A stretch of DNA of 64,000 nt from NCBI GenBank assembly GCA_003162415.1, contig PMOL01000012.1, forward strand, positions 16,728 through 80,727. The letters are read 5' to 3'. Both the position numbers and the translations under genes were made by a program. A model generated the notes under the pieces. It had not been told where the DNA came from. It searched no databases and saw only the letters and a list, made by a program, of their open reading frames with translations. Of the stretch, positions 47,728-62,121 are shown piece after piece. Source of the stretch: Candidatus Dormiibacterota bacterium. GTDB lineage: Bacteria > Chloroflexota > Dormibacteria > Aeolococcales > Aeolococcaceae. Every line of letters begins with the position of its first letter. Positions within the stretch are counted from its first letter, which is position 1.

Positions 47728-48371
47728 TCGAGGAAGCGCAGGCCGCGCCACATCCGCATTGCTTCCGCCTCGGCTTCGAGAAAGCTCGGCCGTGAATCGC
47801 GCATGCCATGCACGAGGAAGCTCCAGGCCCGGCGTTCGCCGTCGGCGCCGTCGATGGTCCCGAAGGCGCTGCCGAGCGCACGTGGCGGGTACATCTCGAT
47901 CCGGTTGCCGTCGCGCATCCGCTTGAAGATCGGGCGGCGCACCAGGATCGACTCGAGCGCCCGCCGGTCCGTGAGCCTGCCGTTCCGGAGGTCGACGATG
48001 CGCAGCTTGGCGATCGGGTTGTCCGGGTCGCGGATGTCGACCCTGCACGAGAAGCGCTCGGAGAGATCGCGGAGCACAAAGACGAGCGCGAGCGCGTCGG
48101 TCTCGTCGCCGGCAACGCGAATGAATCCGGCGGCGGAGAGATTGGTCCCCTGCGGGTCATCGCGGAGATCAGCGGCCACGGCCTGCTCGAAGAAGAGTTG
48201 GGCGAAAAGATCGGTCGACGCGGCGTCAGCCAGCCAGGGGAGCTGGTCGCGCCATTCCCGGCTGGTGATGAGGTCGGTGAACCGGTCCTGTAATCGATCC
48301 CGGTCGGCTGCTGCGACCCCGCGCACGCGAACGTGGATGACCCGGGCCATGCTTTGATTGTACGGGCGCAT
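47724..48371 (-). CDS. Hypothetical protein translationally coupled to dtd
   Basis: 215 aa (or from M8, MARVIHVRVRG...). Its stop overlaps the dtd GTG (GTGA). No family recognised. Confidence 0.55.
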   Translation of the reverse strand: MRPYNQSMARVIHVRVRGVAAADRDRLQDRFTDLITSREWRDQLPWLADAASTDLFAQLFFEQAVAADLRDDPQGTNLSAAGFIRVAGDETDALALVFVLRDLSERFSCRVDIRDPDNPIAKLRIVDLRNGRLTDRRALESILVRRPIFKRMRDGNRIEMYPPRALGSAFGTIDGADGERRAWSFLVHGMRDSRPSFLEAEAEAMRMWRGLRFLE

Positions 48372-48430
48372 CCGTGGCCCAAACGCGCCATGGGGAGCGC
48401 AGGGCGTGCCGCTACACTGCGTCGCGGATC

Positions 48431-48506
48431 GCCGAGGTAGCTCAGTTGGTAGAGCACAGGTCTGAAAAACCTGGTGTCGACAGTTCGATTCTGTCCCTCG
48501 GCACCA
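48431..48506 (+). tRNA. tRNA-Phe (anticodon GAA), CCA encoded
   Basis: GCCGAGG/CCTCGGC acceptor, D arm GCTCAGTTGGTAGAGC, anticodon arm CAGGT-CTGAAAA-ACCTG, T arm GACAG-TTCGATT-CTGTC, then ACCA. Confidence 0.92.
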
Positions 48507-48566
48507 CTATTTCGAATACAAAGCTGCACCTTGTGAGCGCAATACGACCACAGATTTGTGTGAAAT

Positions 48567-48588
48567 GACACCTTCGCTGACACCTTCG
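48567..48588 (+). repeat. Tandem GACACCTTCG-ct-GACACCTTCG motif (candidate integrase arm-type sites)
   Basis: Two exact 10-mers, 61 bp after tRNA-Phe and ~95 bp before the integrase start. An inverted copy lies at 58630-58648. Confidence 0.5.
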
Positions 48589-48681
48589 TGAAAGTTTCTC
48601 GCTAGAATCAAAGCGATTCGGCGGAGGTTTCGGGCGACCGAAGCGCTGCTGAAGTGGCTGGCTCGTGGAGGTGATCTGGCG

Positions 48682-49872
48682 GTGGACCCCAATGTCCCGG
48701 TGGCTACAGAACCAGGCCGGTCTCGCGCCCACAGGCGGCGCGACCCCGGCGACGGCTCGATCTTCCAGCGGAGCGATGGTCGCTGGGTCGCCCGGCTCAG
48801 GGACTCAGCAGGACGTCCCCGCTACCTCTACGCGAAGGATCGCGCCCACGCCAAGCAACGCCTTACCGAAGCGCAGACGGTGGTCCACACGGGCCAGCCG
48901 CTCCCAGACCAACGCCTGACCTTTGGGAGGTATCTCCTGGACTGGGTCGCCGGGCTAGGCGCTGGCGTCAAGCCACGGACCGTCGCCTACTACGAGACGT
49001 ACGTGCGCCGGCACCTGCTTCCGAGCGACCTGGCCCAAAAGCCCCTGGCTCGCCTTGAGCCGGCCGATCTGCGCCGGCTCTACGCGACGAAGCTGAGCTC
49101 AGGTCTCAGTTCAACCTCCGTGCATCACATCCACGCGGTCATCCATGTCGCGCTCCAACGTGCTGTGGACGACGGCATCTTGGGGCGCAACGTCGCCGCC
49201 CTCGTGGGGCGCTCGAATCGGCCCAAGGTCCGGCACGTCGAGATGACCACCATTGCTGCGGGTGATGAGCCCCGACGCTTTCTCGAGGCAGCCAAAGGAG
49301 AGCGTTTGGAGGCTCTTCTGGTCCTCGCGCTCACGACCGGGATGCGGCGCGGCGAGCTGCTGGCGCTTCGCTGGAAGGACGTGGATCTCGAGCGGGGGGT
49401 ATTGGCTGTGACCGGGTCGCTCCAAGGCGAGTCACGTCCGACCCTTAGCATCGCAACCCCGAAGTCAGGCAAGTCTCGGTCGGTCGCCCTGGGGACCGTC
49501 GCAGTGACCGCCCTCCGAGAGCATCGCAAGCGGCAAGCGCAGGAGCAACTTCTTGTAGGCGGCGAATGGCGCGAGGTCGGGTTGGTCTTCTCGACGGAGT
49601 ACGGCGACTTCCTTTCTCCGACCACGCTGCGGTTGGCGCTACGGCGCGCGCTTACTCGGGCGGGTCTCCCAACCATCCGGTTCCACGATCTGCGCCATAG
49701 CGCGGCTACTCTAATGCTGAGCCGCGGCGTACATCCGAAGATGGCGTCGGAAATGCTCGGCCACTCGACAATCGCGATCACGCTCGACCTGTACTCCCAT
49801 GTCACGGCGAACATGCAGCGTCAGGCTGCCGACGCCATCGACGCCGCACTTGCGGATCCGGCAACGCCCTAA
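48682..49872 (+). CDS. Tyrosine-type site-specific integrase (intact)
   Basis: 396 aa; N-terminal SAM-like/core-binding region; catalytic residues present: TGMRRGE (Arg), HDLRHS (His-x-x-Arg), LGHS (His), LYSH (Tyr). Confidence 0.92.
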   Translation: MDPNVPVATEPGRSRAHRRRDPGDGSIFQRSDGRWVARLRDSAGRPRYLYAKDRAHAKQRLTEAQTVVHTGQPLPDQRLTFGRYLLDWVAGLGAGVKPRTVAYYETYVRRHLLPSDLAQKPLARLEPADLRRLYATKLSSGLSSTSVHHIHAVIHVALQRAVDDGILGRNVAALVGRSNRPKVRHVEMTTIAAGDEPRRFLEAAKGERLEALLVLALTTGMRRGELLALRWKDVDLERGVLAVTGSLQGESRPTLSIATPKSGKSRSVALGTVAVTALREHRKRQAQEQLLVGGEWREVGLVFSTEYGDFLSPTTLRLALRRALTRAGLPTIRFHDLRHSAATLMLSRGVHPKMASEMLGHSTIAITLDLYSHVTANMQRQAADAIDAALADPATP

Positions 49873-49924
49873 GCCACGCGACGCATCAGGCGGGGATGGC
49901 GCCTAACTGACGATTTCGGCGCCA

Positions 49925-49941
49925 GCGGTTTCGTAAACCGC
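49925..49941 (+). repeat. tRNA-Thr(CGU) anticodon stem-loop-like 17-mer (repeat copy 1)
   Basis: GCGGTTTCGTAAACCGC is identical to 53651-53667. It lies 53 bp after the integrase stop and 4 bp before the GTG of the next ORF. Confidence 0.5.
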
Positions 49942-49944
49942 GAG

Positions 49945-51180
49945 GTGGTCGACGCCAGCGACTCGATCGCCTTTGCCGCCGGCGCTCGACTCGTCCTCTC
50001 CGATCCGCAGCACCTTTATGTGCCGCAGGCGCAGGAGCGGGTCGAGGCATCCCTGCTCCACATCCCGCCGGCAGATCACTTTCTCGCCCCCTTCACGAAC
50101 ATCGCTGCCGGCGCCCTGATCCTGAGCCCTCTGTCCTCCGTTGATCTCGCAACCGAGACCTCGATCGTGGTGGTCATCTCCACCGTGCTCTTCGCGTTCG
50201 CCCTGCTGTTGATGCGGCGTCTGCTGGCACCAGTGTCGTCACGGCCCATGCGGCTGGCGATCGCGGCGGCCACGGTGATGTGCATCCCGGCTGTGGAGGC
50301 TGTCGTGCAGTGGGATTCGCTCTTGACGGTGGCGCTGCTGGGTTCGGTGCTACTCGCCGAGCGACGCCGCTACGACTGGGCGGGCCTGCTCCTCGCGACC
50401 CTGGTCCTCAAACCGCAGGTGGTCTGGCTCGTCGTGGCCGCCGTCGTCGCCGCCCGGTCATGGCGCTATCTCGGAGGGCTCGTCCTCGGTTGCGCTGTCT
50501 GGCTTGCGGTCAGCACCTTCATCGCTGGACCAGCGGCGCTGGTTGCGCTCGCCCAACTGATCGGCAGCAGCTACCCCGGCCAGGCTGGCATCGGCGTCGG
50601 CATTCCCTCGCTCATCTTGGCAGCGACGGGTAACGGAGTCATAGCCTTCATCGCCGCCGGGGGGCTCGGTGTCATTGCGGCTGCGGGATTACTCTCGCGC
50701 CGGGAACTGTTCCGCGGCCGGCCGCTCGCTGCCGTTGCGATCGGTGTGTCGCTGTCGCTGCTGTGCTCCCCGCATGTCAGCCTCGAAGACCTCATGCTCC
50801 TGACCGTGCCGGTTGCATTCATCGCGCGAAGGTGGCCGAAGGTTGCGCTCGGCGAAGCCCTCGCGATCAGCGCAGCGGAACTTGTCCAACTCCAGTTCGC
50901 GGTTGGCGACCGCCATCTCCAGCCGGTTGTGCTTGCGATCATCGCGTCGTCGGCGGTGCTTGCGCTCCTTCCTCCGCGCGATCTGGCATCGCCGGTGCCC
51001 ACGCACAGCGCGAGTCTCCAACTGACTCCGGTCTCTGGCGCCATCGGCGGGTTGATGGAGTTGATGGTCGTGGATACCAGAGCGCTGCCTCAGTCGCGCT
51101 CCGATCGACCAACGCTGGGTGACTTGGCGACACGGCCCCGTAACGGTCCGGATCGCGACTCTGCGCCCGCCCTAGGCTAG
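49945..51180 (+). CDS. Polytopic membrane protein, GT87/DUF2029-like glycosyltransferase, apparently lacking the usual N-terminal TM
   Basis: ~10 TM segments; ...LVLKPQVVWLV... The loop-1-like motif DASDSIAFAAGARLVLSDPQHLY begins at residue 3. Confidence 0.55.
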   Translation: MVDASDSIAFAAGARLVLSDPQHLYVPQAQERVEASLLHIPPADHFLAPFTNIAAGALILSPLSSVDLATETSIVVVISTVLFAFALLLMRRLLAPVSSRPMRLAIAAATVMCIPAVEAVVQWDSLLTVALLGSVLLAERRRYDWAGLLLATLVLKPQVVWLVVAAVVAARSWRYLGGLVLGCAVWLAVSTFIAGPAALVALAQLIGSSYPGQAGIGVGIPSLILAATGNGVIAFIAAGGLGVIAAAGLLSRRELFRGRPLAAVAIGVSLSLLCSPHVSLEDLMLLTVPVAFIARRWPKVALGEALAISAAELVQLQFAVGDRHLQPVVLAIIASSAVLALLPPRDLASPVPTHSASLQLTPVSGAIGGLMELMVVDTRALPQSRSDRPTLGDLATRPRNGPDRDSAPALG

Positions 51181-51185
51181 GCCCC

Positions 51186-52565
51186 GTGCCGCGAGCTACG
51201 ACTCCGCTCTCGACGCGCTGGGCTGAAACGCGTGCGGGGACTCGCCTCGCCACACGGGTCTCGGTCGGCTCCGGAGACGCCACGTTACTGGCGACGGTCG
51301 CGATCGTCCTGGCGCTCATGATCAGCGCGGGATCGAGCAATCCGGCAGCGCTGTTGCTGCTGGCGATCGCATCGGCTCTGCTCATCGCCGCCCGGTCGAT
51401 GGTCGCGGCCGAACCATCGAAAGCCACTTGGGTAGCGGCGATCGCCTGTTGCGCACTCGCCTTCTTCTTCAACACCGATCTCTTCGGAGGACCTGAGGTG
51501 TTCTGCGCTGCTGCAGTGGTCATCGGTGTGGTGATCGCGCTGGCATGGCGATTTCGCAGTGGCGTCGCACTAGCAGCAGCAGCCGCGGTCGCCGCCGCGA
51601 CGCTGCCGTGGCATTGGGGAGTTGGGCTCTTTGATGTCTTCCGCATCGAAGCCGCGGCCGCGCAGAGTTTGCTGCACGGCGGCAACCCATACAGCGCGAC
51701 CATCTACGACCGTGTCCCGATCGCGCCCGGCGTTGTGGTGATCGGTCCCGAGCATCTCCCATACGGACCAACCGTGGCCGCCGCATCGCTGCCCGGCGCG
51801 CTCGTGGGAGATATCCGCGTGGCGTCGGTGCTGTGGGCGATCGCTGCGGCTGGCGCCGTGCTTCTCGTGGCACGTCAGGGGCTGCTCTCGCCGGCAAGCC
51901 AGCGACTCCTGCTCGTACTCACGGTCGCCTTCCCGCTCATACCATCGATGGTCGTGACCGCCTGGCCCGAGACACTGATGGTCGCGACGTTCGGACTCAG
52001 CCTCGCGCTCTTCCGGCGCCATCCAGTCTGGATGGTGGTGGCGATCGCGGCCTGCCTGCTGGTCAAACCGACAGCGCTGGTGCTCTTCTTCCCGTTCTTT
52101 ATCTGGTCCCCGGCGTGGCGCTTGCGGATCGTCGCCGGCAGCCTCCTCGCTCTGGCGGTCATGCTGATCTGCAGCATCGGTGTCGGCATCCCGGCGGTGG
52201 TGTTCGCCACGTTGGTGCGTCATTTCTGGGAGCCGGTGTACTACGACGGGCTGACAGTTGGAGCAGTTGTCCACAATCTGGGCGGAGGCCCACTTCCGGG
52301 ATGGGTCTTCCCCGGAGCGGTCGCGGTGGCGTGCCTCGCAGTGCTGCGAGTCCGGCCCCGAGACACGGCGGATCTCTGCGTCACCGCAGCTTTCCTCTTC
52401 ATGGTGTCAACCGCGTTCGCCTCATATGCGCGATTCAACTTCTACTACGTAGTCGCAGCGGTGCTCCTATTCGCACTTGGCTCCCGCGGCGTCTCCCCCG
52501 AACCGGTGAGCCGCCCATCCCGCGGCGTCAATCCTGCCCGAGTAGCGGCCGTGATCCCAGCCTGA
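51186..52565 (+). CDS. GT87/DUF2029-family polytopic glycosyltransferase (GT-C type)
   Basis: Multi-TM; DVFRIEAAAAQSLLHGGNPY (first-loop Asp motif), ...YGPTVAAASLP..., LLVKPTALVLFFPFF. Confidence 0.65.
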   Translation: MPRATTPLSTRWAETRAGTRLATRVSVGSGDATLLATVAIVLALMISAGSSNPAALLLLAIASALLIAARSMVAAEPSKATWVAAIACCALAFFFNTDLFGGPEVFCAAAVVIGVVIALAWRFRSGVALAAAAAVAAATLPWHWGVGLFDVFRIEAAAAQSLLHGGNPYSATIYDRVPIAPGVVVIGPEHLPYGPTVAAASLPGALVGDIRVASVLWAIAAAGAVLLVARQGLLSPASQRLLLVLTVAFPLIPSMVVTAWPETLMVATFGLSLALFRRHPVWMVVAIAACLLVKPTALVLFFPFFIWSPAWRLRIVAGSLLALAVMLICSIGVGIPAVVFATLVRHFWEPVYYDGLTVGAVVHNLGGGPLPGWVFPGAVAVACLAVLRVRPRDTADLCVTAAFLFMVSTAFASYARFNFYYVVAAVLLFALGSRGVSPEPVSRPSRGVNPARVAAVIPA

Positions 52566-52576
52566 GGCTCGAGCAG

Positions 52577-53305
52577 TTGCGAACCGTAGTCGTGATGCCC
52601 GCGTATAACGCGGCCAAGACGCTCGAGACGACGCTGACGAGGATTCCCCAGGGCATCGTTGACAGAATCATCCTCGTCGACGACGGCAGCCTGGATGGCA
52701 CCGCGGCGCTCGCGGCGTCTTTGGACCTCGTGGTGATCTCGCATCCACACAACGCGGGCTACGGTGCCAACCAGAAGACCTGCTACATCGAGGCACTCCG
52801 CGACGGCGCGGATGTCATCGTCATGCTGCACCCGGACGGTCAGTACGATCCCGTCATCCTCGACGACATGGTTGAGGTCATCCGCAGCGGGCGCGCCGAC
52901 GTCGTGCTCGGCTCACGCTTTTTCACCCCCGGTGGCGCCCGCGCCGGTGGCATGCCCTGGTGGAAACGCCTTGCCAACCGTTTCCTCACCCGCTACGAGA
53001 ATGGCGTGCTTGGGCTTGGACTCACCGAGTACCACACCGGCTATCGCGCGTACAGCCGCAAGTTCCTTACCACCGTGCCGTTTCTGCGCAACTCCAACGA
53101 TTTCGTCTTCGACACCCAGATCCTCACCCAGGCTGCATCGTTCAAGTTCAAGGTTGCCGAGGTCCCTGTCACGACCAAGTACTTCGACGACGCGTCGTCG
53201 GTGAATTTTCGCGTCTCGCTGATCTACGGGCTCAAGACCGTGTGGACCGTCAACCGCTACGTGCTCCATAGCCTCGGGCTTCGCTCGCGCCGCTACTCCC
53301 GATAG
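52577..53305 (+). CDS. Family 2 glycosyltransferase (polyprenyl-phosphate sugar synthase-like)
   Basis: Start near TTG 52577, GTG 52592 or ATG 52595: VVVMPAYNAAKTLE...ILVDDGSLDGT...MLHPDGQYDP...GYRAYSRKFL. The rest of tracked ORF 51833 is out-of-frame overlap. Confidence 0.85.
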   Translation: MRTVVVMPAYNAAKTLETTLTRIPQGIVDRIILVDDGSLDGTAALAASLDLVVISHPHNAGYGANQKTCYIEALRDGADVIVMLHPDGQYDPVILDDMVEVIRSGRADVVLGSRFFTPGGARAGGMPWWKRLANRFLTRYENGVLGLGLTEYHTGYRAYSRKFLTTVPFLRNSNDFVFDTQILTQAASFKFKVAEVPVTTKYFDDASSVNFRVSLIYGLKTVWTVNRYVLHSLGLRSRRYSR

Positions 53306-53650
53306 TCAGCACGCCGCACTTCCGTGCCGAAGGAGCTGACGTTCCCTACTGTCCAGAGGCCGATTCCAACCCCTACGGGCACCGACGCCACCCGAACGAC
53401 ATTCGCGAGGGTCAACCTCATTTAGTCGATGCTAGTGGCCTGGAGTTCGACGAGCGGGTTCTGGCCCTCAGCAGGACGCTGAACGCGGCCGTACATGTGC
53501 TGCCCCAACTTTGAGAGGTTTGAAGGTGGTGCTCGTTCTGTCGGGGCCTTTCGGCTCGCCTCGCCCTCGCGCTCCACCCCCGTTTATGCCGCTTGCCCTG
53601 GCTTTACACCCCCATTATTGAGATTGTGGAACGGTTTTCCCGCACTCGTT

Positions 53651-53700
53651 GCGGTTTCGTAAACCGCTGGCCGGGAGTTCGAATCTCCCCGTCGGCTCCA
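53651..53700 (+). repeat. 3' half of a tRNA-Thr(CGU) gene (repeat copy 2; att-site-like remnant)
   Basis: GCGGT-TTCGTAA-ACCGC (anticodon CGT), TGGCC, GGGAG-TTCGAAT-CTCCC, CGTCGGC-TCCA. No matching 5' acceptor or D arm upstream, so it is not a functional tRNA. Confidence 0.7.
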
Positions 53701-53808
53701 TTGATCGCAATACGATTTCGAGGTCACGGCGCCCCCAACTGAGGCATTCGATTCGCCGATAAATGCCTAGTGACTACTACTGTGACGACTACCAGCGTCC
53801 AGCTACGC

Positions 53809-54111
53809 TCAGATTGGTCTGGCGAGGAGGGTTTCCAAGCGTGCTGCGGCGTCCCGATGAAGGTTGGGCAAGACGCCTGCATACGTATTCGCAGTGAGGG
53901 CAATCGTGCTGTGACCGAGGATGCTGCTCACCGTCTTGAGATCCGTGCCCGACGCAAGCAAGAGCGTGGCGCATCCGTGCCGGAGGCTGTGGAAAGTCCC
54001 CGTATCTACGGGGCGGGTACAACCGATCATGGGCCTGCTCCCACGCCTCGCAGACCGCACACCTTGCCCAATGCGTCCAGCGGAGCCGATGACCGTGCTG
54101 GCACACCTCAC
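53809..54111 (-). pseudogene. Truncated tyrosine integrase (C-terminal catalytic fragment only)
   Basis: ...TFHSLRHGCATLLLASGTDLKTVSSILGHSTIALTANTYAGV... keeps HxxR, His and Tyr but lacks the ~250-aa N-terminal part. Its 3' end faces repeat copy 2. Confidence 0.75.
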
Positions 54112-54196
54112 CTGACCACACCAGTCACATATTCCCCTGACCCAGGAATAGGTGGGACCCGTGCAATGTTGAGGACCAGTGTCCAGCTAGATCCCC

Positions 54197-54883
54197 TCAG
54201 GACAGGCCCTCCAGGGTGCCAGCTATGAGATCAGGCCCTCCTGTGGCGTCGACGAGCATGTGCTTGGTACCGCAGGTGGCACAGATGAACGCTGCGTCGA
54301 GGGGGTGACCGCAGCGACAGGCCCACCCTATGCGTCGAGCCGGGTTGCCCGCCACGACTGCGTGAGCAGGTACGTCACGCGTCGCCACCGCACCGGAACC
54401 AACCATTGACCAGGCGCCGATGCGGACACCGCCAACCACCACCGCATGCGCTCCGATGGCGGCTCCCCGCTCGACCGACACCCCCGAGACCACCCAGTCA
54501 GCGTCGGCCTTGAGCGACCCGTCCGGCGCCGCCGCCCGGGGATAGCGGTCATTGGTCAGGCAGACGCCCGGTCCGATGAACACCTCATCGTCAAGCACAG
54601 CACCGTGGTACAGGAGGGCGTTGTTCTGTATCTTGCAACGACTGCCAACCTGCACGTCGAGATCGATTAGCACGTTTTCGCCGATGATGCAATCGTCGCC
54701 GACGGAGGCGCCGCGGCGGAGGTGTGATCGAGCCCATATCCGAGTACGCAACCCGATTGTGACCCCACTCTCGATGTCCGCTGTCGGATGGAACAGTGGG
54801 GAGCGAGTTTCTGGGGAGCCATGAATCTCGGGCGCGGGAGCCTGTCCAGGACCTTTGGCAGACGTCTCGTCTACAGAGCTCAA
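54197..54883 (-). CDS. Left-handed beta-helix (hexapeptide-repeat) sugar N/O-acetyltransferase with C-terminal Cys4 ribbon
   Basis: Hexapeptide repeats IGENVLIDLDVQVGSRCKIQNNALLYHGAVLDDEVFIGPGVCL..., ...GNPARRIG, then CRCGHPL...CATCG. Confidence 0.85.
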   Translation of the reverse strand: MSSVDETSAKGPGQAPAPEIHGSPETRSPLFHPTADIESGVTIGLRTRIWARSHLRRGASVGDDCIIGENVLIDLDVQVGSRCKIQNNALLYHGAVLDDEVFIGPGVCLTNDRYPRAAAPDGSLKADADWVVSGVSVERGAAIGAHAVVVGGVRIGAWSMVGSGAVATRDVPAHAVVAGNPARRIGWACRCGHPLDAAFICATCGTKHMLVDATGGPDLIAGTLEGLS

Positions 54884-55668
54884 GTCGGATCACCTCGAGG
54901 CATGGGGGCTCGGCACCGACGGAACCGTGCCTCGACTGTGCTCCCTCGTGCAGCGCAGACGATGACGGCGATGCAACATCTCGGCGCAGGCTGGTTCCCG
55001 AGGCGGCACGGGCTCCACCGCCGACGATCTCCAGGACGTGGAGGTCGGCAGCGCTGATGGGCCTTCACGGTCCTCGTCGCCTTCTATCAGAGGCTGCACG
55101 CACGTCACGTCGGTAGTGCTGTCGTCAAGTCTTCGTCGACGCCACCTGGCGCCAGTGGCGCTGTCCGGACTGGACGGCGGCGGCGAACTCCGTGGACACC
55201 ACGGAAGGCGGCGGGGCGGGACACCGGCGGAACCTCGTCAGACGGCGTGGTTAACCATCGATCCCGAAGGGCGAGCCACCTCCCATCGCGGGCGTGGTCC
55301 GTAGCGGGAGCGATGTCGCCGGAGCACGCGACGCGCCGGGATCATGGCAACCGGTGACGTGCGGCCGGGATCGTCGTAACGCATGATCGCCGGCTGTCGA
55401 ACGAGCAGCACGTGCGCGCTCGGTTTCGTGGTCGTCTGTACGCAGGCAGACCGACGGAAGGGCGACACCTGGACACGGGCGACGCCAGTCAACCCGTCCA
55501 CCCGTATCGGTGCCGCCGTGCGTCTCGTTCCGGAATCGTGCTCCCGGTATCAGCACGAGCACGGCGCGGAGGACGAGTGCATCCGTCGCTGGGCGGACTA
55601 ATGCCAATGGCGTCACAGTCGCGCATCGAAGCGGGACCGCGGAGTCGGCCGGCCATAGGCTGTGCCGA

Positions 55669-57330
55669 GTGGCGGACGTACGGACGATCTCATTGGTGTC
55701 CCGCGCCGGCTCGAGGCGCCTGCCGGCATTCGGTGTCGTCGTCGGCATCACGGGCGCGGCCGCGCTCATCTCCTTCGTGGCTACGCTGGTGCGGCTACCC
55801 ACGCTGCTCGCGGCGGTCTATCGGTTCAGCGACGCCCCTGAGCTGAGCTACATCGCGCAGGGGCTAGCGACGGGCCACGGCCCGCAGCTCCTGCCAACTC
55901 AGACGTCGATCGGCGTCATCTGGTTCGACGAGCTGCTCCAGTGGCTGCCGTTCCGCGCCGGCGTCGAGTACTGGACCGGACCCGTCCTCACAGTGGCGAT
56001 GGGGCTGCTCCTCGTCCGCACCGCCCACCTTGTGTTGGGCCGCAAGGGAACGCTCCTCACCTCGGTAATGCTCCTCGTCCTTCCGACCGTGGTGCTCTGG
56101 CCGCTGCTGTTTCCCGACAACCACGTCACCACGTATGCGGCGGCGGTGCTGCTCGGTTGGCACCTCGTCCTCGATTTGCGCCACCGGCGCAGCGTCTGGC
56201 GCTCCGCGATCGTTGGCACCGTCGTCGGCATCGGGGTCGTCACCGATCCACAGCTGCTGGCTTTCGGTCTCGTCCCCTATATCGCGACCGTGGCGGTGCT
56301 GCGGCGGCGGGTCACGGCACCTCAGGTGCGCTCGTTGCTCGTCACGTTGTGTGGAGCGCTGGTGGCCATCGGGCTCGCGTTTGTCGTGATGAACGCTCAG
56401 GGGATCCGCACCATCGCGATCCTGCCCGGCGGCAGCGGTCTGAGCGGCGTGGTCCGAGGCATCGGACTCGCTGTCCAGACGCTCGCGTGGACCATCGGCG
56501 GAGAGTGGTACGGCGACACGATGTCCGTTGTGGCCGTGGGCCTCTGTGTCGCCGCCGCGTTCAGCCTCGTGGCACTCGTTGTGGTCGGCGTTCGTAAGCG
56601 AGCGGGCGCCGAGCCGGGCTTCGCGTCACTGGACATCTCGTTTGCCGGTTTCGGGCTGTTTTGGGGCATGGACTTCGCATTCCTCGTCGGCGCTTTCGTC
56701 TTCCTCGGTTACGGTGCCGGCGGAGCTCCGATGCAAGGTCACTACCTAGTCGGATGCTATGTCGCAGCAGCCGCCCTGATCCCGGCGATTGCCGTGCGTT
56801 ATGGCCCCAAGTCGCTGACGAGGTGGCGCTCAGGTGCCGGGGCTGCAGCGCTCGGCGCCGTGGGCGTGTTCAGTCTGTTCGCTGTCAACAACGCGGTGAG
56901 CACAGCGACCTTCGACGCGTCGCTGTTCTACGACCGTCTTCAGGTGCCGGCGGCCGCAGACCCGTTGCCGGTGCTGCTGGAACACGGACTGACTCACGGA
57001 TACGCGGGGTACTGGGAGTCGTATGACCTCGACTGGCGATCCGATGGGGTCCTGTCGGTATGGCCGCTGCTCGGTGGTGCGGCGTGCGCTGGTGGGACCG
57101 GGAACCTGTGCCCCTATGCCTTTGCCCCGAAAGGCGAGTACACGCCCACCGCCGGGCAGACCTTCGTGATCACGCCGTGGACGGGGGGCGAAAGCTGCGG
57201 GCGTTCCTTGCCGTCAGTGGCGATCTTCGGGCCACCGGAAGCCGTGTACAGGCGCGGCCCGTACACCATCTCCGTGTACGGGTACGACGTGGCCTCGCGG
57301 TTGTCGAAGGACGCGAGCTTGTTCTGTTAA
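55669..57330 (+). CDS. ArnT/PMT-like (GT-C fold) polytopic glycosyltransferase
   Basis: Start provisionally at GTG 55669 (tracked ORF begins at 55510). >10 TM segments; first-loop motif YRFSDAPELSYIAQGLATGHG; soluble Cys-containing C-terminal domain. Confidence 0.7.
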   Translation: MADVRTISLVSRAGSRRLPAFGVVVGITGAAALISFVATLVRLPTLLAAVYRFSDAPELSYIAQGLATGHGPQLLPTQTSIGVIWFDELLQWLPFRAGVEYWTGPVLTVAMGLLLVRTAHLVLGRKGTLLTSVMLLVLPTVVLWPLLFPDNHVTTYAAAVLLGWHLVLDLRHRRSVWRSAIVGTVVGIGVVTDPQLLAFGLVPYIATVAVLRRRVTAPQVRSLLVTLCGALVAIGLAFVVMNAQGIRTIAILPGGSGLSGVVRGIGLAVQTLAWTIGGEWYGDTMSVVAVGLCVAAAFSLVALVVVGVRKRAGAEPGFASLDISFAGFGLFWGMDFAFLVGAFVFLGYGAGGAPMQGHYLVGCYVAAAALIPAIAVRYGPKSLTRWRSGAGAAALGAVGVFSLFAVNNAVSTATFDASLFYDRLQVPAAADPLPVLLEHGLTHGYAGYWESYDLDWRSDGVLSVWPLLGGAACAGGTGNLCPYAFAPKGEYTPTAGQTFVITPWTGGESCGRSLPSVAIFGPPEAVYRRGPYTISVYGYDVASRLSKDASLFC

Positions 57331-57497
57331 GGGCGTCACCTAGGACGACGAACGAAGGTCACGGAATCGACACCCGGCTCGGGGCGGTGGTGAGGCGCTA
57401 CCGCCTTGGAATCCGCACGATGACCGCCTCGTCGCCGTCCCGAACGCGCCATCCCTTCGAGCGGAGACGGTATGGACGAACTCACCGAGTTCCGTGG

Positions 57498-57539
57498 CGT
57501 AAACCGCTGACCGGGAGTGCGAGTCTCCTGCCGGCTACA
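57498..57539 (+). repeat. Diverged tRNA-Thr 3'-half-like repeat (copy 3)
   Basis: CGTAAACCGCTGACCGGGAGTGCGAGTCTCCTGCCGGCTACA aligns with 53658-53700 with 5 substitutions and 1 indel. Direct orientation, 3.8 kb apart. Confidence 0.6.
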
Positions 57540-58131
57540 GGGGCGTCGCGAAGAGCTCGGACGTGAGGCCGCCGACAGGCTCGAGGCACTCATCGGCGGG
57601 GAGTCTCCGCAGAAGCCGTCCCGAGCCGCCATATTTGGCCTGATGTCCGAGGAGCCAACCGACGAGACGATCGCGTTTCTATTCGATCTCGCGCGAGAGA
57701 CGCCCGATCGCGTCATCGACCAACTCAAGTCGCTCCAAGGGCGCGTCACTCAGTCGTTTACTACTGGGACCGTTCTAATCGCGTTTGCCGCCTTCGCCAC
57801 TGTCCCCGGCAGTCATCTGACCCATGCAACCCTTGGTGCCTTGGCAATGGCCGGACTCTCTTACGTATTCTTGACCGTTATTGCCATCCTCACGTTGCTA
57901 CCGAGTTGGGGGTACGGCTTGCCCGCTCCTCCCACACTCTGGAACGATTACCGCACGTACAAGGTGAGATCGATTCAGGAGGCGTTCATCGAAAGGTTGC
58001 GGCTCGACTGGCCCACCGCCAAGAACAAGATCAACGACGCCAAATGGGCTAGTCGTATAGCTGTCTTGTGCGTCGTCGCCGAGGTAATCGCTCTCGCTGT
58101 CGGCCTTGTGCTGTCGCGGGTGAATACCTAG
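57517..58131 (+). CDS. Uncharacterised three-TM membrane protein
   Basis: N-terminal helical region (ETIAFLFDLARETPDRVIDQLKSLQGR), TMs at TGTVLIAFAAFATV, GALAMAGLSYVFLTVIAILTLL and ASRIAVLCVVAEVIALAVGLVL. Start uncertain (57517 or ATG 57643). Confidence 0.5.
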   Translation: MRVSCRLQGRREELGREAADRLEALIGGESPQKPSRAAIFGLMSEEPTDETIAFLFDLARETPDRVIDQLKSLQGRVTQSFTTGTVLIAFAAFATVPGSHLTHATLGALAMAGLSYVFLTVIAILTLLPSWGYGLPAPPTLWNDYRTYKVRSIQEAFIERLRLDWPTAKNKINDAKWASRIAVLCVVAEVIALAVGLVLSRVNT

Positions 58132-58629
58132 AAGCTAGCGAGGAGGTGGCTCACCAAATGGGATCCGCTGTGGGTCGGGCACGGGTGCTCTCGGTTCCGG
58201 GGTCGGGTGCCGAGGTTCGTCCCGGTGGCCGGGCTCGGGATGCGGCTCCCTGGTGGGTTGCCGTGGCTGCTGTGGCTCCCGAGGATCACGCTGCCGGGCT
58301 ATCACGCTCCGTAGGTTACGCTGCCCGTCAGGATTTCCGCGACAGTGCCAAGACAACTCTGATCTTGACCACTTAGTTAACCGCTTTTCGGGGTGATACA
58401 CAGGGGTAACGCGAGCGGTTTAGGCACCAGTCGCTCGCTCCGACGCCCTAGCTCACCTAGGTGGTGTTATCGCCCCGCTCGCCGACCATCCGTCCTGATC
58501 TTCGCGTAGAACTACACGCATCCCAAGTGGCTCGATGCGCACGAGTCCAGCGACACCCGCTGCGCTCGGCCGGGAAGCAGATCCTCGTCCTGCTAGCGTC
58601 CCCTTTCTTGACGCCGACCCGCCACGTGT

Positions 58630-58648
58630 AGGTGTCAGCGAAGGTGTC
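58630..58648 (-). repeat. Inverted copy of the tRNA-Phe-proximal tandem motif
   Basis: AGGTGTCAGCGAAGGTGTC is the exact reverse complement of 48567-48585 (19/19). Confidence 0.55.
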
Positions 58649-58855
58649 TTCTGGCGAGCCGATGCGGCAGCAAGTGCGTTTCGCGAGTACAGGCGGAGTT
58701 CACGCGCAGCCGACGGACCAGGTTTGGTGCACCTGAGTTGGGCGTTGCGTCCATCCCTGGCCGGCGCCTCTGTGGAGGGTGCCGGCAGAGCAGCACCAGG
58801 TTCCTCGTCAAGCGCTAATACGTCCCCTTGATCCATCTAGCCGTTGTCGATTCCG

Positions 58856-58937
58856 GCCGGGTTGCGGCGTGAAGGGCTCGGCGGTCTCAAAAACCGCCGA
58901 GGACAACCTCGTGAGGGTTCGACTCCCTCTCCCGGCA
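58856..58937 (+). tRNA. tRNA-Leu(CAA)-like element, degenerate D arm (possible pseudo-tRNA)
   Basis: Acceptor GCCGGG(T)/(T)CCCGGC, anticodon arm GCGGT-CTCAAAA-ACCGC, long variable arm CGAGG-ACAA-CCTCG, T arm GAGGG-TTCGACT-CCCTC, discriminator A, no CCA. The D stem has a C:C mismatch and a short loop. Confidence 0.4.
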
Positions 58938-59465
58938 CGTTGTTACATAAAGGATTTCGGCTTGACGAGGCCCCTCTCCTGACCACCCGTCGGGCCAGTT
59001 TATAGCCACGCGTGTAGCCACTGGGCGCAACGAACGGGCAGGACGACTGCTGCGATCCGGTCCCACAAGGATGGATGCCGTGGGGGCGCTCGATAGAGGC
59101 GCATCGGGCAGAAGGATAGATGGCGACATCGGGCCTCGGGTTCAAGTGAAGGGTCCGCGACGCGCACCCGGAGCGAGCCCCCATCTAGGGAAGCAACCCT
59201 CGAATGGGAATGAGCTTCAGGGGTTTCGCGGCCACCCATACCCGGTCGCTATCACGCCCGCCTGCCGACCCCTAGAAGTGCATGACACGTCTGAGCACAT
59301 CGCTCGCCAGTTCGAGCAGCCGCGCACGGATCGACAAGCGGCGGACGTCAGGGACCATGTCGGGTGCCAGCGTGACTGACGGGTAAGCCAACGCACCACC
59401 GTTGCCGCCCACGCTGGTAGACCCGCAGGTGCCTGGTGCTGCTACTGTCCCGAATCGTGCTGGGA

Positions 59466-59813
59466 ATGAGGAAGGCGTGGACGTGCGCCCTCGTCGCGGT
59501 AACTAGCTGCTGCCTAATGGCCGACAGCTGCAGTGGCTCGGACACGGTGATCGAACCGACGCCCATAGTCACGTCGCCTGCAGCGACGGCCCACCCGACT
59601 GCGCCCCTCGTACCAGCGCCCGCAACCAAGGCTCCTACCGCAGCGCCATTACCCGTAACCTCTGGGTTCAACCACGCAGCAGCAAGGGCAGCGGGCGCGA
59701 CGGCAATCTGCAAGGACGGTACCTGGAGTTACAGCGCCCACCGCTCAGGGACGTGCTCTGGTCACCACGGCGTCAGTTGGTGGACGGGAAACCTTGGGCC
59801 TGCTGGACCGTAG
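59466..59813 (+). CDS. Secreted DUF3761-domain protein
   Basis: Start at ATG 59466 (MRKAWTCALVAVTSCCLMA signal), P/A/T linker, C-terminal CKDGTWSYSAHRSGTCSGHHGVSWW. Confidence 0.7.
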   Translation: MRKAWTCALVAVTSCCLMADSCSGSDTVIEPTPIVTSPAATAHPTAPLVPAPATKAPTAAPLPVTSGFNHAAARAAGATAICKDGTWSYSAHRSGTCSGHHGVSWWTGNLGPAGP

Positions 59814-60033
59814 AGGTGGCACATCATGCCGCCATCCTGGCCCTCTCACGCGGGAGAGCTTCACCGGCACGAGTGTTGATGACGTGCCCGGCGTCGCGGT
59901 GGAGGCGTACGTCGTCGAGGAGCGAATGGACGAGCCCGACCCGCCTCGTGAGTCCTCGTTCCCCGTCACGCGCCTGGGCAAGCTCCCGCCGGGATTCGGC
60001 GCCCGCCGCTTGGAGCAGCCCGGGGGTAGTGGG

Positions 60034-60354
60034 TCAGTTTGAAATCGAACGTCGCCGCGCGCGAGAGTCGACCCACCAAGAAGCGCCGTAGCAGAGGAAC
60101 ATCGAGACCAGGCCTACCGACCCGATGTCGTTGCCCACAACGCTGGCCGAGTTGGTCGCTAGCAGACTGAACTCGGTTATCACTCCGGCGCTCCCGACGA
60201 TCTGGGCTGCGCCAATCCACCTCTGGGCTGCCGGGGCCTTGGGAAGCCGTCGGCCCAGACGAGAGATAAGAGGTCGCGCGTTGATCAACATCCAGACACC
60301 GTTGAGCATGATCACAACGAGGACCAGGCCCCCGAGCAGGTAGGCGATGTCCAT
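60034..60354 (-). CDS. Small three-TM membrane protein, unknown function
   Basis: MDIAYLLGGLVLVVIMLNGVWMLI..., ...IGAAQIVGSAGVITEFSLLA..., ...VGLVSMFLCYGASWWV. Divergent from the kinase operon. Confidence 0.5.
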   Translation of the reverse strand: MDIAYLLGGLVLVVIMLNGVWMLINARPLISRLGRRLPKAPAAQRWIGAAQIVGSAGVITEFSLLATNSASVVGNDIGSVGLVSMFLCYGASWWVDSRARRRSISN

Positions 60355-60568
60355 ATCACTGAGCCTAGTCCATCTGGAATTGACTTATGGGAGGAGTGAG
60401 ACGATCTCCTTGATCCCCGCCCGGTAGTAGGCTCGCCTTCAACCCGAAACCCATTCCCTTCCTGAAGAGGCCCCTGGCGGCGTGCCGGGGGTCTCTCGCT
60501 TGCGCGGGGTCAGCACGAGGACCCGTTGACCTTGGGGGTGACCGAACTGCGTTACGCTGTCGCCGCCT

Positions 60569-61342
60569 GTGAGCATCACGCGCGATCAACTCGAGCGCCT
60601 CGATCGACGACACCCCGACCCGCCGGCGCTCGCAATTACCCATGCCGGGCCCCCGCTGGTTAACTCCTTAGCAAGTCCGCACAAGTTCGTCTGCAGCAAT
60701 TCGCGCACGTACTGGACCAAACGGAAAACACAACGCGCGTTGGGCGTTGAGCTGATCGCTGGCAGGCTGGCGCATCTGATGGAGGTCGGCCCCAACGCTC
60801 GGCCAGTCATGGTGCCGCAGGCGGCCCTCCCTTCCGATCACTCTGCAGACCACTGCGAGGGACTCTGCGTGGGCTTCGTGGCCGTGCCTGACACCGTGAA
60901 CACCAAGGACCTCCCGACATTCCTGGCTCAGGGTGGCGTCTTCAATCCCGATTCCCTCAACGCGGCTAGCAGGGCGCGGGTCATCGCCTTTCGCGCATGG
61001 ATCGGTGCCGGAGACGCCCAGGCGCTCATACAGTTCAAGACAGGGAAACTCTTGTCCATCGACCATGGTGATGCGCTGGACGTGGCAAGCAGTTCGGTCG
61101 ATGCGCAAGGTGTTAGCGTCTCCGGCGTTGCGGACGATGTTGGCAGAGACGCGAGGCTGGCACGGGTCACTGTTGAGCGCATTGAGAACGTGTCGGAGCA
61201 CGAACTCCTTACCGCTGTGGCTGACGTACCGGATGAGCCCGGCTGGAATTTGGATCTAGACGCCCGTCTCAAGATCGCCGAGTGGCTCGCCAACAGGCGC
61301 GGTAAGATACGTGAGGTGATGTCAAAGTGGTCAATCAAGTAA
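60569..61342 (+). CDS. HipA-family-like (PI3/4-kinase fold) protein kinase
   Basis: ...SRTYWTKRKTQRALGVELIAGRLAHLMEVGPNARPV (nucleotide-binding Lys strand plus helix), ...FRAWIGAGDAQALIQFKTGKLLSIDHGDAL (catalytic-loop Asp; IDHG as DFG equivalent). Recognised by eye only. Confidence 0.6.
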   Translation: MSITRDQLERLDRRHPDPPALAITHAGPPLVNSLASPHKFVCSNSRTYWTKRKTQRALGVELIAGRLAHLMEVGPNARPVMVPQAALPSDHSADHCEGLCVGFVAVPDTVNTKDLPTFLAQGGVFNPDSLNAASRARVIAFRAWIGAGDAQALIQFKTGKLLSIDHGDALDVASSSVDAQGVSVSGVADDVGRDARLARVTVERIENVSEHELLTAVADVPDEPGWNLDLDARLKIAEWLANRRGKIREVMSKWSIK

Positions 61343-62121
61343 TTCAACCAGGCTACTTTTCGCTGCTTCGTTGGCGATCGGATGCGACCCGGGACGAGGC
61401 ACGGAATGTCGCGGTTATCCTCGTCGATGCTGAGGGGATGATTGGAGGGCTGCGGGCCACGGATTCTGTGGCGTCGATTAGTCCTCACCTTGCTGAGCAG
61501 GGACTTCTCGACACCCTTATCCATGGCCTCCAGGCGCGACTCGAAGGCCCGGAAAGACCGGATCTCGCCGAACTGCGACGCATGCACCTATCGCTCCAAG
61601 AGTCGCTGTACCTGACGGAACCCAAGCCGTGCGCTGTTGTCGATGTCGAGCAAACGCTAAACATCCTTTTCAAGGCTTATGTCAAGCGTCCGAGCTTTCC
61701 GAGCGGTCGCACCAAGGGCAAGTTGCTCGTGCAAATCGTCAAAAGGCTGCGTGCCGAGAAGCTCGACGTCCGCCGCGATGCATATGTGGATGACTATCAA
61801 TTTGACGCACTGGTTCGAAACGGAAAAGGTCCGGTCGCTCTGAATGTTCTGACCTTCGCTCAGGCCGCGCGAAAGGACTGGAGAGAGGCTGAGTACGATG
61901 CAAGCCACTTCATCTTCAGCGTCGAGCGAACAGGGCTTCCTGCCGTCGCTTTGTTGGAGGCACCCGGGGACGACTCGCCCGGCACGACACAGGTTCCCTA
62001 CGAGCGGGTAAACCGTTGGTACTCAGACGCCGGGGTGCCCGTCCTAGGACCGGAGGCGGTGATACTCGAGCCACGGCTGGTGATGGAGTCGGCCCACAGC
62101 GTAGCGCCGGCCGCCCGCTAA
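61327..62121 (+). CDS. DUF3037-like protein (N-terminal DUF3037 signature, uncharacterised C-terminal half)
   Basis: GTG start overlaps the kinase 3' end by 16 nt. GYFSLLRWRSDATRDEARNVAVILVDAEG matches the Y-x-R-x(6-8)-E-x-x-N-V-G-V-I-L pattern of DUF3037. Confidence 0.6.
   Translation: MVNQVIQPGYFSLLRWRSDATRDEARNVAVILVDAEGMIGGLRATDSVASISPHLAEQGLLDTLIHGLQARLEGPERPDLAELRRMHLSLQESLYLTEPKPCAVVDVEQTLNILFKAYVKRPSFPSGRTKGKLLVQIVKRLRAEKLDVRRDAYVDDYQFDALVRNGKGPVALNVLTFAQAARKDWREAEYDASHFIFSVERTGLPAVALLEAPGDDSPGTTQVPYERVNRWYSDAGVPVLGPEAVILEPRLVMESAHSVAPAAR

Follow-up and report, generated by a model that had tools for sequence, protein, structure and literature searches.

Genomic islands that use a sublocation in the anticodon loop of a tRNA gene were reportedly described by Williams in 2002. 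In temperate phages of Shigella and Salmonella, gtr serotype-conversion modules lie beside int-attP. Islands that integrate into tRNA genes are collected in the Islander database (PMC4383910), and partial tRNA genes are well documented both as att remnants and as markers of rearrangement (PMC9897764; PMC4383910). Islands targeting tRNA or tmRNA genes also accrete in tandem and decay to cis-mobilizable elements (CIMEs), as in the ICESt1-type elements of Streptococcus and the ssrA islands of Dehalococcoides, and accretion followed by decay is a documented route to att-flanked units without an integrase (PMC5704250; PMC3146451). Here, we analyze a stretch of 64,000 nucleotides (nt) from the genome of a Candidatus Dormiibacterota bacterium (the whole stretch is termed the window, and the genome G000), in which three repeats derived from tRNA-Thr(CGU), copies 1–3, divide an island downstream of a tRNA-Phe gene. 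The comparison set comprises 42 congeneric species (handles beginning with G; contigs of G000 begin with C). With a probability of roughly 0.6, we take the repeats to be fossil att sites of tRNA-Thr(CGU)-specific integrative elements that are nested in a 10.2-kb Phe-type block (∼48507–58737), a region that would have formed by accretion and then decayed.

The locus resembles CIME arrays in that direct repeats of the 3′ part of a target RNA gene divide the region downstream of an integrase gene, some units carry no integrase gene, the cargo differs from unit to unit, and the composite is inherited or moved together. The att-flanked units are of a single specificity and lie beside an integrase gene; cassette 1 (49942–53650) has no integrase gene of its own, and cassette 2 has only a fragment. 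In contrast to CIME arrays, the array is headed by tRNA-Phe although its repeats derive from tRNA-Thr, a complete tRNA-Thr is missing, decay of the units is far advanced, and there was no sign of excision. The resident integrase, moreover, belongs to a family tied to tRNA-Phe and not to the Thr specificity of the att repeats, which does not fit cis-mobilization. At its left end, the locus is organized like the islands collected in Islander: an intact tyrosine integrase gene adjoins an intact tRNA gene (tRNA-Phe), a block of identity begins in the anticodon loop and continues to the 3′ end, the tRNA gene receives its new 3′ half from the element, and a displaced fragment may mark the far end. 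Unlike in such islands, however, the displaced Phe fragment is found on another contig (C3), at least ∼84 kb off if contigs C7 and C3 abut, and tRNA-Thr is represented by fragments only.

All three repeats lie where a previous reading of this DNA from its letters alone (the sequence-only reading) had placed them (Table 1), and their similarity is far beyond chance. The 17 nt of copy 1, GCGGTTTCGTAAACCGC, are exactly the first 17 nt of copy 2 (53651–53667), as had been claimed; at up to two mismatches, this 17-mer has two matches in the window against 0.02 expected. Copy 2 comprises the anticodon stem-loop (with CGT), the variable region, the T arm, the 3′ strand of the acceptor stem, and CCA, and has no 5′ half. 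In the window, ARAGORN calls a tRNA-Val, the tRNA-Phe (48431–48506), and a tRNA-Leu(CAA) (58856–58938), and no tRNA-Thr. It makes no call at copy 2, and the Rfam tRNA model scores this position (53622–53694) at 21.8 bits, under the 29-bit threshold, in agreement with the description of copy 2 as a clean 3′ half.

The 31-nt core of copy 2 recurs at 57498–57528, within copy 3, with 28 of 31 positions identical, three mismatches, and no gap (shuffle expectation 0.00). Over the whole stretch, copy 3 is ∼84% identical to copy 2 by manual count, with one 1-nt gap and differences at 7 of 43 positions. The sequence-only reading had given ∼86%; that copy 3 is a direct version starting in the anticodon loop holds, its identity to copy 2 beginning at CGTAA within that loop. 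The T loop of copy 3 reads TGCGAGT, against the universal T-loop consensus, and this change, together with the 1-nt deletion, is what a remnant free of selection would be expected to show. Copies 2 and 3 are in direct orientation, at a distance of 3.8 kb. Copy 1 does sit just behind the intact integrase gene, with 52 nt (not 53) between the stop codon (49870–49872) and the repeat.

The genuine tRNA-Thr(CGU) gene of this genome (C11:589608–589679) is located 462 bp from a contig end. Its alignment with copy 2 substantiates the proposed tRNA-Thr(CGU) origin of the repeats: 43 of 45 aligned nt are identical, and the stretch from TGGCC to GGCT is the same throughout. Both differences affect the anticodon stem, where each change in the 3′ strand is offset by a compensatory one in the 5′ strand, the stem reading ATGGT/ACCAT in the C11 gene and GCGGT/ACCGC in copy 2 (two compensatory pairs). 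The genus is dimorphic for this stem, with GCGGT/ACCGC in 23 of the 42 congeners, ATGGT/ACCAT in this genome and 14 others, and a third form in G006. Because copy 2 carries the GCGGT/ACCGC allele, it is an exact tRNA-Thr(CGU) 3′ half as found in other species of the genus. Its end, GGCTCCA, is also that of attL in the elements of G043 and G053 described below, and copy 2 is therefore of the element-borne (attP/attL) type. CCA is not encoded in the attR copies of these two elements or in the C11 gene, and other congeners vary. An origin of the repeats from a widespread dispersed family, which the sequence-only reading had allowed for, was checked as well: pieces derived from tRNA-Thr(CGU) occur only as the three copies and one 21-mer on C22.

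Some further observations concern tRNA-Thr(CGU) genes and their fragments elsewhere. CCA is encoded in roughly one in two of the tRNA-Thr(CGU) genes that were compared, perhaps as a mark of element-occupied sites. A hybrid on C22 (147535–147579) joins the anticodon arm of tRNA-Ala(CGC) to a Thr-type T arm and acceptor end. At locus L031 of G007 (contig C63, 207–220 and 678–691), the last 21 nt of tRNA-Thr(CGU) are repeated 470 nt downstream of the gene, the second copy being a remnant of the T-loop crossover type. Adjacent to the genuine gene of G000, contig C11 ends (589680–590141) within a minus-strand gene that reads by eye as the C-terminal part of an HNH endonuclease, possibly from a repeated gene family.

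Thr-specific elements with a crossover in the anticodon loop are present in the genus. In G043, tRNA-Thr(CGU) lies at 500622 and its repeat at 511152, and in G053 the corresponding positions are 135836 and 126578, each pair delimiting a ∼10-kb element. In both genomes, attR identity begins at TTTCGTAA in the anticodon loop, and in G043 attL and attR are identical over 45 nt. Further Thr junctions of attL and attR type occur in metagenome contigs. An anticodon-loop crossover, as proposed by the sequence-only reading, is therefore an appropriate model for the repeats. The two elements share with the window the tRNA allele, the crossover region, and the CCA-bearing attL half, and their integrases belong to the same broad family (the G043 enzyme is 37% identical to the window integrase and, over 58 aa, 66% identical to int′, the integrase fragment near copy 2). 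They differ from the window in occupying a genuine tRNA-Thr gene, in carrying an intact integrase gene that reads away from the tRNA, in their GTACCCAC-type arm repeats, and in having the same core at attL and attR.

Copy 1 is a junction at which homology to other genomes breaks off from both sides. Its left 11 nt are common to the 3′ flank of the integrase gene in G005, where homology runs through CCAGCGGTTTCGTA and ends after GCGGTTTCGTA; in G034, the integrase flank is conserved only through AGCGGT. From the right, homology to the GT87 glycosyltransferase gene of G012 begins at CGCGAGGTGG, with the last 3 nt of copy 1, the CGC common to both. The breakpoints on both sides identify copy 1 as the place where the integrase module was joined to a truncated gene, possibly through the microhomology CGC. 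The G012 homologue (88% nt identity) possesses 32 extra N-terminal codons, which encode a hydrophobic segment resembling, by eye, an initial membrane helix. The window gene, broken exactly at copy 1, may be a pseudogene or may start at the GTG at 49945. Each of the three copies lies at a module boundary or homology breakpoint, in line with the earlier claim that the repeats divide the region into units.

In G005, whose integrase (90% identity) is likewise encoded beside tRNA-Phe, GCGGTTTCGTA is positioned 51 nt past the stop codon and is followed 121 nt further on by ATCTCCCCGTCGGC, the last 14 nt of the Thr half. This split half is the best evidence that a whole Thr half would once have lain behind the integrase gene. 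The presence of the same integrase together with a split Thr half suggests that the Thr landing pad behind this gene is old.

The repeats are enclosed by sites of the Phe type. The window tRNA-Phe carries a T in the T loop where five relatives and the displaced half on C3 (304726–304770, minus strand) have a C, and thus the variant base expected of a 3′ half supplied by an element. The displaced half is canonical, has the native T-loop base, and is preceded ∼110 nt upstream by a direct copy of the arm-type motif. The same motif, GACACC-N-CTGACACC(T), lies 100–160 nt upstream of integrase genes of this family at 10 loci in 10 congeners. Orthologues of the intact integrase are encoded beside tRNA-Phe in G005, G004, and G011 (81–90% identity); further orthologues occur in G034 (88%) and G033 (93–97%). 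The neighbors of the orthologues in G005, G004, and G011 and the arm motif of its own show that the intact integrase is Phe-specific in its family association.

In the genus, tRNA-Phe is an integration hot spot; in many relatives, its 3′ part, from the anticodon loop on, is repeated one to three times downstream. No tRNA-Phe 3′ fragment is present on C7, the contig that bears the window tRNA-Phe; a repeat on C7 as the end of the island was therefore rejected, the Phe repeats lying on C3 and C20. The native flank downstream of tRNA-Phe in G010 maps to C3:292.6–295.9 kb. Together with the displaced half on C3, this mapping would imply either a large composite tRNA-Phe island, which measures ∼84 kb or more provided that C7 adjoins C3, or a rearrangement.

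The right end of the block was located with public sequencing runs. Contigs of run X1, the likely source of the assembly, tile 48229–60473 without mismatches, and runs X2–X5, from other studies, hold 48759–58737 at about 99% identity. The junctions of all three copies are spanned by contigs of X2, that of copy 2 also in X5, and that of copy 3 also in X1, X3, and X4; in X2 and X5, copy 2 is attached to both of its flanks. The block is carried en bloc in several independent metagenomes. Beyond 58737, X1 follows the window, and X2, X4, and X5 go on as ATTCGGCCTGGGCC..., which is absent from this assembly. The inverted arm motif and the hairpin at this end form a module with a fixed span of 102–107 nt, which is found six times in the tRNA-Phe island of G005, directly after tRNA-Phe in G013, and, by a strict pattern, in 8 of the 42 congeners. 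Since the module is not followed by a Phe 3′ half, it does not qualify as a canonical attR. With the tRNA-Phe attL on the left and the Phe-type motif on the right, the Thr copies lie inside a block bounded by Phe-type sites, and no intact tRNA-Thr heads the array, which is therefore not one of accretion at a tRNA-Thr gene.

Several candidates around the right end were rejected. The 19-nt inverted repeat does not represent transposon ends or inversion sites, since there is no target duplication and the loose ends in X1 mismatch the inverted junction. A direct repeat, D7 (58737 / 60739), is not a second module; there is no hairpin at that position, and the match is a chance one inside a gene. 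The pseudo-tRNA-Leu(CAA) is identical to the genuine gene on C6 over its 3′ 59 nt, diverges in its 5′ part, and fails the Rfam tRNA model; as a native neighbor of tRNA-Phe it was dismissed, being absent within 20 kb in 13 of 13 relatives. Paralogous Leu halves lie at C22:146399–146532 and C22:166808–166879. For window positions 57540–61500, no orthologue was found in relatives. The ∼60-nt repeat with a GC-rich hairpin at 60434–60497 also occurs at C20:356021, C22:145661, and C9:66964 and in the relatives G009 and G004, as a small dispersed element.

If the repeats are fossil att sites nested in a Phe-type block, an element-type tRNA-Thr 3′ half would have come to lie ∼52 nt behind the integrase stop codon before the modules of G000 and G005 diverged. 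This half would have acted as a secondary attB, or landing pad, with which Thr-specific elements recombined, the crossover taking place within the 7 nt of the anticodon loop. Congeners with the GCGGT allele would be the source either of these elements or of the half. A deletion at the CGC microhomology would have fused the first 17 nt of one half to the GT87 gene minus its 32 codons, thereby creating copy 1, and the integrase gene beside copy 2 would have been trimmed to 62 codons, next to a patch of host-like acetyltransferase DNA. Copy 3 would have gathered mutations at tRNA-invariant positions. Today, the copies mark the module boundaries of a putative envelope-glycan cargo and are inherited with the block, with no sign of continuing recombination. 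Serial accretion, already put forward by the sequence-only reading, is thus the best overall account, provided that decay and mixed tRNA specificities are included.

Several points weigh against this account. Among 10 orthologous integrase loci, the Thr-like site occurs in G000 and G005 only, and G034 as well as the closest orthologue, G033, have no Thr-like sequence beyond GCGGT, so that the ancestral half is attested by G000 and G005 only. Neither an intact tRNA-Thr nor an undecayed Thr element is found at this place in the 42 congeners, and a junction-specific exact 24-mer has zero matches in metagenome and genome collections. The int′ fragment is not tied to Thr; it is closest to the Ser(UGA) type and oriented opposite to its relatives. 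For copy 1, the data are compatible with site-specific insertion as well as with deletion. The search for recombination between the copies also came out negative: no joint between any two of them is present in the contigs of six public runs (X1–X6, four of which cover the whole block), although this is weak evidence, because Logan contigs drop rare variants.

In the version of the sequence-only reading, a single Thr element has copy 2 for attL, copy 3 for attR, and int′, read toward attL as in lambda-like layouts, for its integrase; copy 1 is a remnant of a further element, and the region arose by serial integration. The direct orientation of the two copies 3.8 kb from each other, a right-hand copy whose identity starts inside the anticodon loop and extends to the 3′ end (copy 3 is 84–90% identical to copy 2), and the element-type CCA end of copy 2 are all compatible with it. 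A layout with the integrase gene facing the tRNA also occurs in this genome, at tRNA-Leu(CAA) on C6 and tRNA-Leu(CAG) on C3. The truncated integrase gene does have its 3′ end toward copy 2, with the stop codon 110 nt away, yet it may not be the cognate integrase of this copy. It aligns (53994–53812) with aa 334–393 of the intact integrase at 48% identity, and over 58 aa it is 81% identical to the tRNA-Ser(UGA)-associated integrase on C18 against 66% to the Thr integrase of G043 and 48% to the Phe integrase. Since all three of these are encoded reading away from their tRNA, the pairing of copy 2 and int′ as attL-int is not supported.

The unit between copies 2 and 3 contains, moreover, neither a complete tRNA-Thr at attL nor a functional cognate integrase, and its ends differ at 7 of 43 positions where those of the G043 element agree at all 45 nt. 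No arm-type motif is common to the flanks that face each other, right of copy 2 and left of copy 3, and a k-mer scan of the flanks of all three copies returned only isolated 9-mers. Part of the unit is host-like replacement DNA: int′ is cut close to the start of a 909-bp stretch (window 54246–55152) that is 93.5% identical to C3:140863–141771. In the genus, neither int′ nor the flank of copy 2 has a close relative; ∼75% nt matches are restricted to the conserved catalytic part, and the flank in G014 shares just an 11-mer with that of copy 2. The right flank of copy 3 was also considered as a native tRNA-Thr downstream flank; its weak CTCGGACG match to the G043 attR was unconvincing. Copies 2 and 3 as the ends of an attL-int...attR element thus find weak backing, and we regard this version as unlikely.

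A different view of copy 1 would make the 17-nt stem-loop itself a working recombination core, with two 5-nt inverted arms and a 7-nt overlap, at which circular units that lack an integrase gene and carry the same core are inserted in a site-specific manner. A 3.7-kb cassette (GT87, 459-aa, and GT2 genes) would in that case have copy 1 as its attL and the beginning of copy 2 as its attR, on an integron-like platform within the tRNA-Phe island. The 17-mers at the cassette ends are identical, their identity stops exactly at the inner stem ends, the cassette has no integrase gene of its own, and homology breakpoints fall at or within the stem-loop in three lineages, after nt 5 (G034), nt 11 (G005), and nt 14–17 (window). 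Such capture is nonetheless improbable, given that the GT87 gene is truncated with a 3-nt microhomology, as in an illegitimate deletion, that the site is missing behind the closest orthologues in G033 and G034 and conserved in only 2 (G000 and G005) of 10 orthologous loci, and that the public runs compared with the window contain no cassette-free or alternative-cassette variants. The intact integrase also belongs to a Phe-specific family with a different core stem (CAGGT/ACCTG). That the Thr-like stem-loop, and perhaps the CAGGT-N7-ACCTG hairpin module too, are working cores that exchange integrase-less glycan cassettes strikes us as quite improbable; if true, it would reveal an integron-like platform with sites mimicking tRNA anticodon arms and explain the stem-loop breakpoints in the three lineages.

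Finally, the arrangement could reflect a chimeric assembly or a tRNA-Thr locus moved beside tRNA-Phe, or the 17-mer could be a chance tRNA-like terminator hairpin. The assembly consists of 22 contigs and is probably a metagenome-assembled genome, its best-matching run being a peat metagenome; a contig ends only 462 bp away from the genuine tRNA-Thr, and the displaced tRNA-Phe half is on another contig. Against these possibilities stand the zero-mismatch X1 unitigs, which tile all junctions, the independent runs that span them, the allele of copy 2, which is that of other species and not of the host's own tRNA-Thr, and the chance expectations of 0.02 for the 17-mer and 0.00 for the 31-mer. We consider these possibilities highly improbable. 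The evidence on all sides leaves fossil att sites of Thr-specific elements, decayed within a Phe-type block, as the explanation that we prefer.

Table 1. Features of the tRNA-Phe island and its right boundary in the window
Feature	Position	Strand	Remarks
tRNA-Phe(GAA)	48431..48506	+	Island attL (host 5′ part and element-borne 3′ part); ARAGORN; Rfam 73.9 bits
Arm-type motif GACACCTTCGCTGACACCT	48567..48585	+	P′ arm, between tRNA-Phe and integrase gene
Tyrosine integrase, intact, 396 aa	48682..49872	+	tRNA-Phe-associated family; Pfam Phage_integrase E = 1e-27
Copy 1	49925..49941	+	17-nt tRNA-Thr(CGU) anticodon stem-loop, junction stump; exact match to start of copy 2
GT87 membrane glycosyltransferase gene	49945..51180	+	Without 32 N-terminal codons; Pfam GT87 E = 2.6e-10
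459-aa protein	51186..52565	+	No Pfam or NCBIfam match
GT2 polyprenyl-phosphate sugar synthase (PpgS/GtrB-like)	52562..53305	+	Pfam Glycos_transf_2; PpgS best NCBIfam, below cut-off
Copy 2	53651..53700	+	Complete element-type tRNA-Thr(CGU) 3′ half, GCGGT allele, CCA at end
CGCAATACGA box	53706..53715	+	Right flank of copy 2; also in P′ arm of Phe attL (48538–48547); k-mer scan, weak alone
int′	53812..53997	-	C-terminal ∼62 codons of tyrosine integrase (HxLRH ... GH ... Y), N-terminal side cut off
Hexapeptide-repeat sugar acetyltransferase	54197..54883	-	Pfam Hexapep E = 1.3e-20; NeuD/PglB/VioB best NCBIfam, below cut-off
606-aa protein	55510..57330	+	No family match; coding-like composition, GC content at third codon positions (GC3) 0.82
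Copy 3	57498..57539	+	Decayed tRNA-Thr(CGU) 3′ part, start within anticodon loop
Inverted perfect copy of Phe-type arm motif	58630..58648	-	Right-end module with hairpin
Hairpin CAGGTTTGGTGCACCTG	58719..58735	+	Stem of tRNA-Phe anticodon arm, different loop; right-end module with inverted motif
Right boundary of conserved 10.2-kb block	58737..58738		X2, X4, and X5 contigs match to 58737
Pseudo-tRNA-Leu(CAA)	58856..58938	+	att remnant of further element, outside block shared with other strains

Judged from family names alone, the cargo between the repeats looks like a set for envelope-glycan modification. The GT2 gene of the island is 91% identical (nt) to the copy in G012/G032 versus 86% to the copy of its own genome on C15, and the gene is present in 40 of the 42 congeners. 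It is a xenologue of a core gene, and the cargo came from other species of the genus. The 459-aa gene has homologues of 73–79% nt identity, including one located 1.3 kb from tRNA-Phe in G006, and such homologues are found in other tRNA-Phe islands, that of G006 for example, without Thr remnants. With the GT2 gene and the acetyltransferase stretch, the island holds second, diverged copies of host glycan genes.

As in the gtr modules, genes for a polyprenyl-phosphate sugar synthase, a membrane glycosyltransferase, and an acetyltransferase are grouped beside an integrase gene and att sites, which suggests an alteration of surface glycans. In contrast to these modules, the locus belongs to another phylum, has its genes in a different order, encodes other protein families (GT87 and unknown membrane proteins), and is devoid of phage genes.

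The sequence-only reading had called the mixture of Thr repeats and tRNA-Phe unusual, which the rest of the genome does not bear out. A scan with all 50 tRNAs retrieved ∼50 fragments, nearly all of them 3′ parts, from ∼17 different tRNA genes. They are distributed over C1, C3, C11, C14, C19, C20, and C22, many on contigs other than that of the parent gene. An array on C20 consists of five tRNA-Pro(GGG) halves followed by a Phe half and by Gly, Thr(GGU), and Leu fragments, and one on C22 of Ser, Leu, an Ala/Thr hybrid, Ser, and Leu. Arrays of mixed specificity are therefore a property of the genome and not of this locus alone.

Taken as a whole, the locus is an ordinary, well-understood genome mosaic that leaves current concepts unchanged; its slightly unusual twist would be a landing pad formed by a Thr half on a Phe-specific element. 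It provides a clean worked example of how fossil att sites record the assembly history of a mosaic island. For annotation, it calls for caution, in that the ARAGORN call of tRNA-Leu(CAA) at 58856–58938 and similar ones are att remnants and not tRNA genes (cf. PMC9897764). The fossil GCGGT allele and the 91% identical GT2 xenologue indicate that the DNA came from other species within the genus. A tRNA half carried by one element may be a landing pad for elements of another specificity, which would explain the mixed-specificity arrays of this genome, and to judge from the cargo, strains of this peat bacterium may vary in their envelope glycans.

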